A stretch of DNA of 64,000 nucleotides from Alphaproteobacteria bacterium (GTDB taxonomy: Bacteria > Pseudomonadota > Alphaproteobacteria > Paracaedibacterales > CAITNM01): NCBI GenBank assembly GCA_947487955.1, contig CANKYV010000005.1:940-64939 (forward strand), in the 5' to 3' direction. Positions 42,801-48,800 of the stretch are shown here, in pieces. Position 1 is the first letter of the stretch. The number at the start of each line of letters is the position of its first letter. Made by a program: the position numbers.

Positions 42801-45800
42801 TTTATATTCATTGTGCGCATTTTTGTCGGAGATGCAGCAACGCTTATATCTACTATACTACCAATATATGATGCTTCAATTCCTTTCGAACGCGTTATTA
42901 CTCTTGGTGATCATTGCCAAACTAAATTTCAAATCAATTTTTATTTTGAAAAGACACATCCAGGAAAAGCTAAAGATTATACCGGTGGCTCCCATATATT
43001 TGACTGGGTAAAAATAAGTAATCTGGACTTATTAGCAAGCGCTTTTTCTAATAAACTAGAAGGAGTTTGCGATGAACGTATGGATGTTAAGGTATCATCA
43101 GTCGCATGGTCAGATGTTGAAATGCACGCTGAGCCTATAGATGTATATGGCATTCGTTATAGCCATTTGTTTGATAAACACCCGCTAATAGAACAAAATA
43201 CTCTTAATCTTAATGGGGAAAATATATTATTAAATAAGACACTATTTGATTCTAATTATAGTGGAGTTAGAGATATCGTGGAATATAAAAAAAATAAATT
43301 AATTAATAATACCTACAGAACAATGTATATACATTATGCTAGTGACTATTCACGAGGGCAAATCACCGATGCCAGCGTTAAAAGGCTGAGGGACTCAATA
43401 TGCGTATTCAGGGGTGATTCAAATTTTGTCTTGCATATTGTTTCAAATACTTCGCTACCAATTGAGAGTGCGGAGAATATTACTTTCAGTGTAATAAATA
43501 ATGCTGTAGTTGAAGTTCATAAGCAACTAGATCCAGCATGGGAAGAATTACTAAACACCTATTCTTATGCTCCGGCACCTCATAGCGAAAGAAAATGAAA
43601 ACCATGTCCTATCGGATGGGGCCAGTACGGCAAGTACAAATTCCAAAAGATAATGGAAAGGGAGTTCGTATACTCGGTATCAGTAGATGATGCATAAGGT
43701 TCTAGAAAGTATTTATGAGCCATTTTTTTTGGATTGCTCCTCTACGGGTTCAGACCAGGACGTGGGTGTCATGATGCGATTAAAGCACTTTCTGAGCATC
43801 TTTATAAGAAGGAAGTCGAGGTCGTCATAGACGTAGACATTGCCAATTTTTTCGGAACAATATCACACATAAGACTGAAAGAGTTGCTACAAACTAAGAT
43901 CACAGACCAGAAATTCATGAGGTATATTTCCAGAATGTTTAAAGCTGGAGTTTTAACCGACGGGGATCTGGTGGTGAATGAGGAAGGAGTAGCTCAAGGA
44001 AGTTTGTGCAGTCCGGTGTTAAACATGAAGTGATAGATAACTGGTTCGAAAGGATTGTAAAAAGACATTGCAAAGGCCAAGTCGAAATGTTCCGTTATTG
44101 CGATGACGTAGTAATCTGTTGCCAGTATCAAAGCGATGCAGAACGAGTTAAGGAGGCATTGGACAAGCGACTGGCTAAATTTGGTTTGGCATTAAACAAG
44201 GAGAAAACACGATTAGTGCAGTTCTCCAAAGCGAAATCCAGGCAAAAGATCAAGCAAGAAGCTTTTGACTTTTTGGGATTTACCTTTTATTTGGGGAGGT
44301 CGCGAAAAGGAGACCTAATACCAAAGGTGAAAACGAATGGCGCTCGCCTGCGTAAAAAGCTTAAGAGTGTGAACGTATGGGCACGAGAAGTCAGGAATAA
44401 GGCACCTTTGAAGGAAATATGGAAAGCTTTTGGTCAAAAATTAGAAGGACATATACAGTATTATGGAGTGTCCTTTAATGCCAGAAGTGTGCATAACTTC
44501 CGAAATAAAGCAATTAGGACAATGTTTAAATGGCTCAATCGACGAAGCCAACGTAAGTCATTTAATTGGGAGGAATTTGAACTCTTTATGAGCAGATATC
44601 CAGCTCCCAAGGCAAGAATATGTCATGTATTATTTTAGAAACTATGTGAATGTACTAATCTTGAGCCCATTGCTTTAATAGAGCACGATGTGGTTCTAAA
44701 TGGGGGGAAGTTGCGGCAACGTGCTTCTCTACCAGCTTACCTAAAGGGAATTTTCCTCTATTCCTAAAAGAAGCTGAGTGGCGTTTTAATACCCCTAATC
44801 CAAAAGCTCAACTAAGCCAGTTAAAGCAATGGGTTAAAGCCCTACTAATCTAGTTATCTGGTACAGCTCCTAAATCTATACATTATTGAAATTTTTCGGC
44901 TATTTGGCGCATTAGAGTTAACATGTATCTTTTGGTAAAATCGGCCGTAAAAATTGTTTCAGCAAAGTTACTTGCCTCACAAGCAATACTTTCAGCGAGC
45001 TCAGGATTTGCCTTTAGCATTTCTACTTTTTCTATTAAATCAGACATGTCTCTTTTTACTGCAATATAATGAACATTTTCTGTTAGATACTTTGTAAAAT
45101 AGCATTCATGTCGGGTTGAAAATATAGGCACAGAACCTGAAAACATAATTGATTGTGGACGCCTCCAAGCAGAACAATTTCCGTCTGTTGAAATATTATA
45201 ACGATATTTAGTCATCTCTGGGAATGGCACAAAAGAAGCGGGTGGACCAAAAATTTCTGTTATTTTTGCTTTGTATTCTAGCGCGCTTGGGGTGAATTTT
45301 CCCTCGGATGTCTCTTCCAACTGAAGATCGTAACTTCTTGTAAATCTAGCATCCACATGAGCAGGGTGAGTGTGCGTAAGCATAACCAAATTCAATCTTG
45401 GTACTGGAGGTAATGCATTAAATGCTTCCATATTGTACCATGCTCCTGTCTGGGAACCACGCCACCCAACGACATCTTCCCTACTGCGAAAAGGTTGAGA
45501 AAGTGATGATCTTTTAATTTCTTCCATTTCTTCTGTATATTTATCTGCCAATTGATATATATCTGGAATAAGTATAATTTCTTCATCCTGCCCCTGCAGA
45601 TGATCGGGAAATACAAAAGGAACTCTTGCAAAGTAACTAGCAATTTCAGGAGGATAACAACAAGCATCCCACAAAGGAAAAAAGAAGGAAAAGCTCTGAG
45701 ATGAACTAAAACCAAGTTTATTAAGATAATTGACTAAAACTAGTAGATGAGGAAGATTCCATTTGTCATCATTCTTATAGCCAACCTCAAATCTTTTTTC

Positions 45801-48800
45801 AGGAGTATAATTTATTCGAGCTATTGCTGTTTCAAACATCTGTCCATTTTTATCTCTCAAAAATGCTTCAAATTCATCGCAGGTCCCCAAAGAGAATGAA
45901 GAGGAAGCTATTTTTACTCCAATATCACTCAATACTTGTTCATCTAAACTTCCTGTTGAGTTATTTGCAGCAAAGGAAAGAGAGCTAATACTAGCTAGCA
46001 TCAGTGGCAATGCTAGAATTTTAGTAAGAAATCTAATAAAAATGTCACTTATTCGTGGCTGTTTCATGGCTTCATCTTTCCTTCAAATGAAAATGTTAAT
46101 ACTTTTTTTCTAGTTCCATAAGTTTTCTAATTACTAGCTTGTCTGTTGAATCGTCAGTCTCTCTATCCCAAAAATATGCGTAAAGCAAGAGTTCACTTGG
46201 ATATTCAGACATCAAATGCAAATGATTGGGTAATCCTGTTTCTACTCTTTTTTTCTTTTTCAAAGCACTGACAAAACTATTTTCATTATAGAGTCTTAAT
46301 GCTGTTTGGTAGTTCTCTTCTATAAAAGGAAGCATTGCAGCATATGTGGTATTTGTTAAAGAATTAGCGATTTTGATAGCACCTTCAGCATCATCTGCAA
46401 GAAGTAAACCTTGGATATTGAAAAAATCGCCAATATTAGGACAACCAATATAAATAGGAACAACCTTATTCATAAGAGGTTCCAAAATTTTTTCTGAAAA
46501 ATAATCTTTTTCTTTAATATTTTCAACAGCAACATGAAATTGCGAATCATATAATTCTTTTGTTTTGTTATCACTAGGCATTTTTCTTGATTTGTGCTGA
46601 TTAGGAATATCACCTCTACTTGAGACATAGAATTTTCTCGGTATAGACGTAATACGCTTCTCATTTTCAAAAATTTTTATCCTATCTCCGTAACAAAAGG
46701 TATAATTGCTCAATGAATATGGATTACTTGACCAGGATCCATATGAAACGCTCGCTAACATGCTCAAAGAAAAATTTTTCTCAGAACTAACTATTTTGCT
46801 AATTCCACCAAAGCGGTTTCCAAAAGAGAACGTCCCTAGATGTCTAATCCCATTAGGCAAATCATTTAATGCATCATCATTGTGAATAACCATCGAAAAG
46901 GAAGAAGCAGCTGCTCGTACCTGATCATTTTTCTCTCTATAGGGTGTGGGTTCATGAGAAATTAAAAATACTCTATCTGCTCCAGAATGAATCGGGTAAC
47001 CAGCAGCTCCAGCGTGCACATCTGTCTCTTGCTCGACAACATTTTTAACAGTATATATGAAATATTTTGCTTGCTTAGAAAGCTGAAATTGCTCGTTTTC
47101 CCAAATTGTGCCTGAGAAAACCTCTTGCTTTCTGAATATAGTATCCATATTTTGCAGGGTACGTGCATTAACTACTGAGGGGATCATTCCTAACGTTGGA
47201 TATAAATCAAGATTTTCAGCCATTTTCCTTAAATAAATATCCATGACGACGCCGCCGTTTCTAAAATTACCATGGAAAAGTGCAGTTTCACAGCTAGAAG
47301 CGCTATCAATAAATTTCACCCTACCTGAGGTTTGAGCTCTGCAAATTTTATTACCTTTTTTCAAACACATTCCGGTAAACCAAACATCATCAACCGTCGA
47401 GAAATCCTCCATAAAAATCTCTTCTTTTATTACGTCTTCGTGTAAAATTCCTGGCGGATACAAGACCCCAGAACAACCTTCAATAAGAAGTTGAGTTGAA
47501 GGAGCATGCTCTCTGTTTACTGTTTCTACATTGTAAGAAAAATCAAGTTCATTCCAATCATTGAGTGTACCTGTTTGATTACTTGTTAACTTGATTACTG
47601 ATCCACATACAACACAATTTGGATTTTTCTTATGTGCTCTTAATAATTCAGATACCGAATTGAGAGGCATGACGCCATCATCGTCATAGGTAATAAGAAT
47701 TGCATTAGGAAATTTTTTAAGCGCAGGAATAAGTTTTTTATAGGGCTTTGTATTTCTATCACACCATAGAATTTCTAATCCTCTATTTATTTGCTTCTGT
47801 AGCATCCATGGCAAACTGCCATTGGGAAATTCTTGCTCGCACAAGACAAGGTTAACTCGAACTGCTTGAGAAGAGAATTGTTCTATTGCGCGCCACACCT
47901 CTTGAATTCGCCGCGGGTATGACGTTATACAAACAATAACTTCTTTTTCATCAAAAGGTTGTCCTGAGAAATAAGGTCGCCTTAAGAAATGTTGAGCTAT
48001 TTGCTCTGTACTGTATTGACCACCTCCCATGAAGTTTTGTCTATAAACATTTAACTGTTTTAAAGTTTCACTATCAAATCTCGCGCCCCTCACACGTTCA
48101 ACCGTATCTACGGGAATTTGGTTAGACAAAGTTGATCTGTGCCCAAGTATAGCTTTTTGACTTTCCCGTGAATGCATTTGATTAACATCAAGTGAGAGTT
48201 TAGAAAATGGAATAGGGAGAAAATTATCGTCCTCTTTGATATGAATATCAAACATAGCTGTCAATATTCCATCGTACCAAGGAATCAATGTATTATCATG
48301 ATCGATTGATCTACTTTCTATGGGTTTCTTATCAATATTCTCGAAAAAGTCTAATGTCTTATCAAGGACAAGATGTCCAGGTGCTGCGCCAAATGAAGTA
48401 TCAGCCAGCAAAAAAAGCTCTCGCATCATAAAAATATTAAAATTATTACATAAGAAAGAGGGGGATATATTAAAATCCACCCCAAAATTGGTAGAGATAC
48501 CACCAAACAAATGGATAATATTTGCTTGAGCGACGTTAGAACAGGCAGCGTACTGTTTTTTTTCTAAAAGCCTTACAAATAAATCTTTGCCTTTAAAGTT
48601 TGGCCATATTTCATCCAAAGATCTAATTGTAATGTAATTAGTAATTTCAGGGCATTCTCTTACCATATGTGCAATTTTTTCTTTATTATACACCCACAAA
48701 ACATGTTGAAATGAGGGATTTGATTTAACTTGAGCTAAATAATGCCGAAGCATTTCTAAAGGAATTGGCGACGGTTTAGTATTAGAAGTCATCCAAAATT

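Follow-up and report, generated by a model that had tools for sequence, protein, structure and literature searches.

A GT90 glycosyltransferase with a predicted export signal in a conserved enzyme island of an alphaproteobacterium related to protist endosymbionts

Here we describe a gene for a GT90 glycosyltransferase at 44883..46067 on the minus strand of a 64,000-nt stretch of contig CANKYV010000005.1 (positions 940 to 64,939 of the forward strand; assembly GCA_947487955.1, Alphaproteobacteria bacterium), which we call the window. The gene has an ATG start and encodes 394 aa plus a stop codon, and its product belongs to GT90, a family of GT-B glycosyltransferases, in which its sequence relationships place it in a deeply branching bacterial clade of the family. 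It carries a predicted signal peptide and lies in an island of enzymes that also carry predicted signal peptides, and a related island is present around its closest homolog. Our preferred reading is that the enzyme is exported and works within an island of exported carbohydrate-modifying enzymes on donors that come from a host, a chain of steps which, taken as a whole, we rate at slightly less than an even chance.

Membership of GT90, claimed in the original prediction from the sequence alone, is borne out by both profile and structure. Pfam PF05686 (Glyco_transf_90) matches the protein at E 1.4e-17 with 64.1 bits against a curated cutoff of 24, and an AlphaFold2 model built on the family alignment (pLDDT 91.2, pTM 0.86) superposes over its full length on POGLUT1, POGLUT2 and Rumi. 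In a Foldseek search of the PDB the top four matches are human POGLUT1, POGLUT2 and Drosophila Rumi, at E 8e-17 to 3e-15 and TM 0.64-0.74 over alignments of 357-396 columns, and the next matches are generic GT-B enzymes at E of about 1e-5. NCBIfam holds no model that matches the protein. At the level of sequence the similarity is confined to the donor-binding half: the PF05686 match covers residues 177-391 on profile positions 139-321 of 396, and a sequence search of the PDB finds POGLUT2 at E 1.7e-11 and POGLUT1 at E 2.4e-6. A 22-sequence family profile brings these values to 2e-30 and 2.5e-29, again over the C-terminal half only. With hhalign, residues 175-394 are the only part that aligns to POGLUT1, the N-terminal domain being left out, and a profile of the N-terminal domain against the PDB returns chance matches only and no POGLUT. 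In the model the entire protein, including the N-terminal domain that is invisible to sequence methods, has the GT90 GT-B fold. The family signature had been described as running almost end to end; this holds for the donor-binding half, whereas the acceptor-binding N-terminal domain has no detectable sequence similarity to the POGLUTs.

The C-terminal donor-binding domain (44886..45482, residues 196-394; this and all other features of the gene are on the minus strand) is the part that was aligned to POGLUT1, POGLUT2 and Rumi. The three motifs quoted originally were all found, namely WRGSQTG at 45444-45464 (residues 202-208), DARFT at 45339-45353 (residues 239-243) and the 64-residue block YRYNIS...VEML at 45015-45206 (residues 288-351). 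The same domain contains R224 (codon 45396-45398), R303 (codon 45159-45161) and the pair D295-G296. The N-terminal Rossmann-like, acceptor-binding domain (45483..45950, residues about 40-195) contains a conserved P168-D169 and the candidate catalytic base D134 (codon 45666-45668). In a 135-sequence homolog alignment, on which all conservation counts are based, G204 and G296 are invariant and R224 is kept in 134/135 sequences, followed by D295 (130/135), D169 (128/135), R203 (127/135), D134 as Asp (124/135) and R303 (120/135).

The catalytic base is Asp133 in POGLUT1 (PMC5543122) and Asp238 in POGLUT2, in which the UDP diphosphate is held by R310, S312, R316 and R376 (PMC13084666). R224 of the window protein corresponds to POGLUT2 R316 and POGLUT1 R218, R303 to R376 and R279, T207 to POGLUT2 S312, and R203 to POGLUT1 R210. 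The position of POGLUT2 R310 is taken by S205, the same residue as in POGLUT1 (FRGSRTS there, WRGSQTG here). Equivalence in the N-terminal domain is indirect: POGLUT1, its sequence checked against the PDB alignment and five of the residue numbers that PMC5543122 gives, was mapped transitively via homologs that align over residues 60-370, and its D133 falls on the D134 column, as Asp, in 20 of 26 intermediate sequences. The check on catalytic residues suggested with the original prediction hence comes out in its favour, given that D134, R203, T207, R224 and R303 are all kept. Because the catalytic Asp and the donor-phosphate residues are conserved, we consider it highly likely that the enzyme is active, and very probably as an inverting, UDP-sugar-dependent transferase. 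The residues of POGLUT1 that contact the EGF domain (F104, R107, A172, Q240) have no consistent column counterparts, and since these are missing and the N-terminal domain cannot be aligned, the protein is, as judged from its sequence, not a protein O-glucosyltransferase ortholog.

The start of the gene is marked by a ribosome-binding site, GAAGGAAAG, which can be read directly in the sequence at 46076..46084, 8 nt 5' of the ATG at 46067 and with its AGGA core 11 nt from that ATG. This site argues for the first ATG as the start and hence for a signal peptide that is part of the product. The predicted Sec signal peptide comprises residues 1-33 (45969..46067), which read MKQPRISDIFIRFLTK-ILALPLMLASISSLSFA and are followed by ANNSTGSLDEQ, with acidic residues after the predicted site between SFA and AN. 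It has a basic n-region (K2, R5, R12, K16), a 17-residue hydrophobic stretch (residues 17-33) that is the sole hydrophobic segment of the protein, and S at -3 and A at -1, with no lipobox. The charge distribution predicts that the N-terminus is inside and the C-terminus outside, and the model shows a helix at the N-terminus and then a low-confidence linker (residues 32-37) before the globular fold. An equivalent N-terminal segment is present in four of the five closest homologs, and among full-length homologs signal-like segments are found in 69/105 from AT-rich genomes versus 4/18 from high-GC genomes. The peptide had been called cleavable from the outset; its three regions and the SFA-AN site are indeed there, but the calls of a signal peptide and of its cleavability come from rules applied by inspection (n/h/c regions, -3/-1) and not from a trained model. 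Taken together, we regard export of the enzyme by Sec as likely.

GT90 is the last gene of a three-gene unit on the minus strand, as had been read originally, and the reported spacing is confirmed: exactly 28 nt separate it from the upstream ORF (open reading frame) of 1196 aa, which ends with the stop codon at 46096-46098 and in turn overlaps the 517-aa ORF by 4 nt. Because of the 28-nt gap and the 4-nt overlap the three genes look like one operon. Scans for consensus promoters and terminators at the locus gave background level only. A TTG-initiated ORF of 107 aa (45392-45715, minus strand), wholly inside the GT90 gene in another frame, is almost certainly spurious.

The first gene of the unit (49683..51236, minus strand) encodes the 517-aa protein, which has a predicted signal peptide (ASA before SD) and no match in Pfam or the PDB. 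The second (46096..49686, minus strand) encodes a 1196-aa multi-module glycosyltransferase, the operon partner directly upstream of GT90, with a predicted signal peptide (AFA before AL). Its C-terminal module is GT10 fucosyltransferase-like (E 3.6e-6 to 7e-7), and the protein matches alpha-1,3-fucosyltransferases in the PDB at E 7e-4 and, weakly, GT2 at E 7e-4. A by-eye reading of the 517-aa protein and of module 2 of the 1196-aa protein as GT32-like, with a DXD motif, was dropped, since it came down to a sub-threshold Gly_transf_sug match (E 0.024) in a homolog at locus L009 only.

The other half of the island, which as a whole is flanked by enolase/MFS genes and by dinB, is on the plus strand. 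It consists of a Sulfotransfer_2-family sulfotransferase of 491 aa (41230..42705; PF03567, E 1.4e-11; predicted signal peptide), which has an N-terminal domain of about 100 aa, and of a 273-aa protein (42777..43598; predicted signal peptide, GDA before AT) for which neither a family match nor an L009 homolog was found. None of the four neighbours of GT90 has a further membrane segment, and all five island proteins have one N-terminal hydrophobic segment, an AXA-like site and a charge bias that predicts the N-terminus in and the C-terminus out. Compared with each other, the five proteins show no internal repeats or common domains at E<0.5. The GC content of the island is slightly under the window mean (z -0.8 to -1.9), and the GC content at third codon positions (GC3) is unremarkable. 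Between the two halves lies the remnant of a group II intron reverse transcriptase/maturase (43734..44638, plus strand), frameshifted and 5'-truncated, with RVT_1 and GIIM matches spread over two overlapping frames, the 5' end of the reverse transcriptase domain gone and a GC3 of z = +3.2 versus the rest of the window. No intron RNA domains and no Rfam element were detected in the region of the remnant.

A related island surrounds the closest GT90 homolog, which is 47% identical by phmmer and 44% identical over the BLAST-aligned region (loci L009 and L012). In L009 this island spans 884-8959 and adjoins the genes for IleRS and LspA, and the same lineage is represented in L010-L012. Next to the GT90 it encodes three related proteins, all of which begin with signal-like segments. 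An 886-aa sulfotransferase, 43% identical to that of the window, has an extra module that resembles residues 263-461 of the 1196-aa protein. Another part of the latter, residues 538-810 (its GT-A module), shares 37% identity with a 741-aa protein, and the 517-aa protein is matched over its full length, at 29% identity, by a 496-aa protein. The GT90 of the L009 lineage has a C-terminal extension which is the sulfotransferase N-terminal domain, with E 3e-16 to 8e-19 against the window copy and E 6e-29 against its own neighbour sulfotransferase. No family could be assigned with confidence to this domain of about 100 aa (DUF7401 at E 0.18 only). Because the gene set is conserved while modules are exchanged among its members, we consider it rather probable that GT90 acts together with its island partners. 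Genes for a flippase, a polymerase, an initiating transferase or the synthesis of nucleotide sugars are absent from the island and from its L009 counterpart. As an aside, L012 is NCBI WGS record JACCDN011202354.1, and its contig number of more than 1.2 million hints at either a metagenome of very large size or the assembly of a eukaryotic host with symbiont DNA in it.

An exhaustive search for relatives of the enzyme returned 2193 cluster representatives at E<=1e-3, of which 266 reach <=1e-10 and 15 reach <=1e-30, whereas a word-indexed search found 4-6 relatives only, even with the 22-sequence profile. A scan of the contigs of GTDB species representatives found one distant Myxococcaceae metagenome-assembled genome (MAG) only. 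The closest relatives are P0005 (47%), P0006 (44%), P0007 (43%) and P0008 (38%), and the nearest set spans 30-47%. Wherever a contig could be read, the relative sits amid bacterial-type genes. In L007 these are genes for an aminoacyl-tRNA synthetase, MutS2, T2SSE and TamB. The relative in L015 ends an O-antigen-like cluster (MBOAT, GT2, ManC, Gmd, a 600-aa integral membrane protein, an ArnC-like GT2 and a small membrane protein). In L023, from an Alphaproteobacteria MAG, two GT4 genes follow, with LpxC and BamE nearby, and in L025/L026, from a Gammaproteobacteria MAG, the GT90 is beside a CAP59-like gene and near LptFG. In L002 and L004, which are high-GC, the GT90s have no signal, and their neighbours are a polysaccharide deacetylase and a gene of the CMP-sugar-synthetase-like kind.

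Three of these loci deserve a remark of their own. L015 is a marine (TARA) contig of 27% GC on which the stretch 6717-11161 holds a signal-bearing GT90, the ArnC-like GT2, a four-helix membrane protein and the 600-aa polytopic protein; the gene order resembles periplasmic lipid-linked sugar transfer and raises the question of the donor for a periplasmic GT90. In L025/L026 (10001-12128) the GT90 gene, of CAP10 type, is directly followed by the CAP59_mtransfer (PF11735) gene, near lptF/lptG. The CAP10 and CAP59 families both take their names from capsule genes of Cryptococcus. In L022 (3300-4589) P0007 is one gene away from an alkyl-sulfatase-like protein of the metallo-beta-lactamase fold (PF00753 + PF14863), which is a second, independent tie of this GT90 clade to sulfate-ester chemistry.

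The window comes from a metagenome assembly (ENA ERZ27280204, contig k141_1236041) and carries ordinary bacterial housekeeping genes; the GT90 gene sits on a bacterial contig, as had been stated at the outset. The LeuRS of the window shares 62% identity with the enzyme of Candidatus Finniella inopinata, 59% with those of Paracaedibacter symbiosus and Odyssella acanthamoebae, and 75-86% with unnamed metagenomic proteins. By these protein comparisons the host is a Paracaedibacteraceae-like alphaproteobacterium. Paracaedibacteraceae form a clade of endosymbionts of amoebae and other protists. Two further regions of the window, 8159-10373 and 73-2695 (both minus strand), appear, as read from N-terminal sequences, to hold genes for a UDP-glucose 6-dehydrogenase-like and an NAD-dependent sugar epimerase-like protein as well as a run of flagellar-type genes, and the bacterium hence appears to make at least some UDP-sugars itself.

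From the predicted features we infer how the enzyme could work, including its export and cleavage, its donor and acceptor, and the use of donors from a host. The Sec signal peptide would place the catalytic domain outside the cytoplasm, in the periplasm, at the cell surface or beyond. Once the enzyme is exported, D134 would take up the proton of an acceptor hydroxyl, with the UDP diphosphate bound by R203, T207, R224 and R303. The enzyme would in this way attach a hexose or pentose, with inversion, to an envelope glycan or protein of the bacterium, and its neighbours in the island may go on to elongate, fucosylate and sulfate what it has made. UDP-sugars, GDP-fucose and PAPS are found in the cytoplasm, and the periplasm of a free-living cell contains neither nucleotide sugars nor PAPS. 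Donors derived from a host would be needed for this reason, and they could enter from its cytoplasm, porins of the outer membrane being one conceivable route for their diffusion. Reasoning by analogy with known host-fed enzymes, we hold this use of host donors to be a serious possibility, though one with the odds somewhat against it.

Several observations weigh against this reading. The close homolog P0007 (43%) truly lacks a signal, with stop codons 5' of its start, and high-GC relatives have no N-terminal signal either, which indicates that the fold can work in the cytoplasm. Several relatives have cytoplasmic GT2 or GT4 enzymes as neighbours, in surface-polysaccharide loci of an ordinary kind. 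A crude hydrophobicity rule is positive for all five island proteins versus 15/49 other window ORFs (Fisher p = 0.005), but it is falsely positive on Rossmann-fold N-termini, and some of the 15 are false. No secretion-system genes and no host-targeting motifs were seen in the window. Finally, we infer the endosymbiotic lifestyle only from the identity of about 60% between the window LeuRS and those of named symbionts.

Two other explanations accept an active GT90 and differ in where it works and on what. The enzyme could be an ordinary transferase for an envelope glycan (lipopolysaccharide, O-antigen or capsule) that works at the cytoplasmic face of the inner membrane with the cell's own UDP-sugar, the N-terminal segment being an uncleaved tether or irrelevant. 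The relatives in L015, L023, L025, L002 and L004, which sit in surface-glycan loci, point this way, as do the signal-less homologs, the bacterial GT90 XpApiT, which works in the cytoplasm of E. coli, and the UDP-glucose dehydrogenase and epimerase of the window. The positive-inside rule, however, gives the opposite topology for all five island proteins, all of which also have AXA-like sites, and the island and its L009 counterpart lack the flippase, polymerase, initiating transferase and nucleotide-sugar synthesis genes. The original prediction had named LPS-type enzymes of cytoplasmic topology as the nearest homologs that would speak against it; several relatives are indeed in surface-glycan loci, whereas most AT-rich relatives have export-like N-termini. 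We give the cytoplasmic alternative about one chance in a few. Somewhat less probable still is a secreted effector, which would leave the cell through Sec and a subsequent release step (for example type II secretion or vesicles) and would glycosylate host proteins or glycans, alone or with its neighbours. The predicted signal peptides on all island proteins would suit such an effector, and so would the kinship to protist endosymbionts, the missing envelope-assembly genes and the fact that GT10, Sulfotransfer_2 and GT90 are families typical of the eukaryotic secretory pathway. Against it stand the window, in which neither secretion machinery nor host-targeting motifs were seen, the EGF-recognition residues of the POGLUTs, which are not conserved, and the relatives in polysaccharide loci, which argue for bacterial glycan acceptors.

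A further explanation concerns where the gene came from. The original prediction raised transfer from a eukaryote to a bacterium, and the corresponding scenario is a recent acquisition of an amoebozoan or fungal GT90 from the eukaryotic host, with an ER-type (endoplasmic reticulum) signal kept and host mimicry as its role. The family is known chiefly from eukaryotes, structures have been solved for animal POGLUTs only, and the GC content of the island (z -0.8 to -1.9) could be taken as a trace of such an event. The GC3 is normal, however, and among the closest 20 or so relatives every available context or name is bacterial. In a neighbour-joining tree of the donor domain, which does not include named amoebozoan and fungal GT90s, the window sequence groups with P0005-P0008, while POGLUT1, POGLUT2, Rumi and the mite protein P0058 cluster separately. 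By distance from the window sequence POGLUT1, POGLUT2 and Rumi rank 115th-133rd of 134 and the mite protein 87th. The library of the exhaustive search contains at least some eukaryotic proteins, none of them near the top; the best eukaryotic match in the top 150 is the mite protein, in 58th place. The gene context of the homologs and the donor-domain tree, with the animal GT90s that it covers, led us to reject a recent transfer from a eukaryote, so that this origin is left with a very slight probability, and the suggestion of host mimicry is not supported. A giant virus or phage as the source was likewise discarded, given that no close relative was found in IMG/VR and that fold matches in BFVD (a Klosneuvirinae GT90, iridovirus kinase/'LPS-modifying' fusions and one phage protein) are only 14-22% identical and no closer than the POGLUTs.

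Bacterial GT90s as such are already known: they are annotated in MAGs, and one has been characterised. What sets this case apart is the divergent N-terminal domain, the predicted export signal, the conserved domain-shuffling island with a Golgi-type sulfotransferase, and their occurrence in a lineage related to protist endosymbionts. We found no description of such an arrangement in the literature on GT90/PF05686 or on glycosyltransferases and sulfotransferases of Paracaedibacter. In its most far-reaching form, which we consider doubtful, the proposal is that a mobile, domain-shuffling island of Sec-exported, Golgi-type enzymes serves as an extracytoplasmic glycan factory that runs on host UDP-sugars, GDP-fucose and PAPS and covers the surface of the bacterium, or targets in the host, with a host-like coat that is sulfated and fucosylated. 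Enzymes that depend on nucleotide sugars or PAPS are as a rule restricted to the bacterial cytoplasm, since their donors are absent elsewhere. A conserved set of five such enzymes with predicted export signals, in a bacterium akin to endosymbionts of protists, would make little sense if the donors were not derived from the host. If export and host supply are as proposed, the island would show how an intracellular bacterium builds or remodels glycans by means of host metabolism, and it would give a concrete role to the many unstudied signal-bearing bacterial GT90s in metagenomes. If export is false, what remains is a divergent bacterial surface-glycan transferase of a family from which one bacterial enzyme has already been characterised.

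Among known systems, the animal enzymes of the ER, POGLUT1/Rumi and POGLUT2 (KDELC1) (PDB 5L0R, 5F84, 9W47), match the window protein over the full length of the GT-B fold and can be aligned in the donor half. They share with it the catalytic Asp and the Arg and Ser/Thr residues at the diphosphate (PMC5543122, PMC13084666), and in both an N-terminal signal sequence goes with action outside the cytosol, which in the window protein is a matter of prediction. Identity is only 15-19%, however, and the N-terminal domain is unrecognisable by sequence. Unlike the POGLUTs, the window protein has no KDEL-type retention signal and no filamin domain, and it is encoded in a bacterial operon with other transferases.

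Among bacterial members, XpApiT is the GT90 apiosyltransferase of Xanthomonas pisi, the activity of which with a UDP-pentose, UDP-apiose, was established by expression and assay in E. coli (PMC6193724). It likewise has a partial, low-scoring PF05686 match, sits beside another glycosyltransferase and uses a UDP-sugar (PMC6193724). Compared by description and not by sequence, the two differ in that XpApiT is in an operon with its own donor synthase and is reported with no mention of a signal peptide (PMC6193724), whereas the window GT90 has a predicted signal peptide and no donor-synthesis gene nearby. The GT90s of MAGs (e.g. MCX7338870.1 from Alphaproteobacteria, and one Gammaproteobacteria protein) belong to the clade of the window protein or to neighbouring ones, have 31-33% identity to it, agree with it in length and in the conserved residues, and likewise have hydrophobic segments at their N-termini. 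They sit with GT4 or CAP59-like (PF11735) genes, in contrast to the sulfotransferase and GT10-like island around the window GT90.

For the proposed supply of donors by a host the nearest parallels are Lst of Neisseria, an outer-membrane sialyltransferase (PMC4324315) that uses host CMP-sialic acid (PMC10827150, PMC4668040), and the secreted GlgA of Chlamydia, which makes glycogen from host UDP-glucose (PMC4829429). Lst (GT52) and GlgA (GT5) are of unrelated families and leave the cell by other routes, and their location and donor are experimental findings, whereas those of the window GT90 are predicted. The principle would nevertheless be the same, that of a nucleotide-sugar enzyme outside the bacterial cytoplasm (in the inclusion lumen in the case of GlgA) that is fed by a donor from the host. 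If the proposed glycan factory is real, the island would extend what Lst and GlgA each do as a single enzyme to a set of several enzymes.

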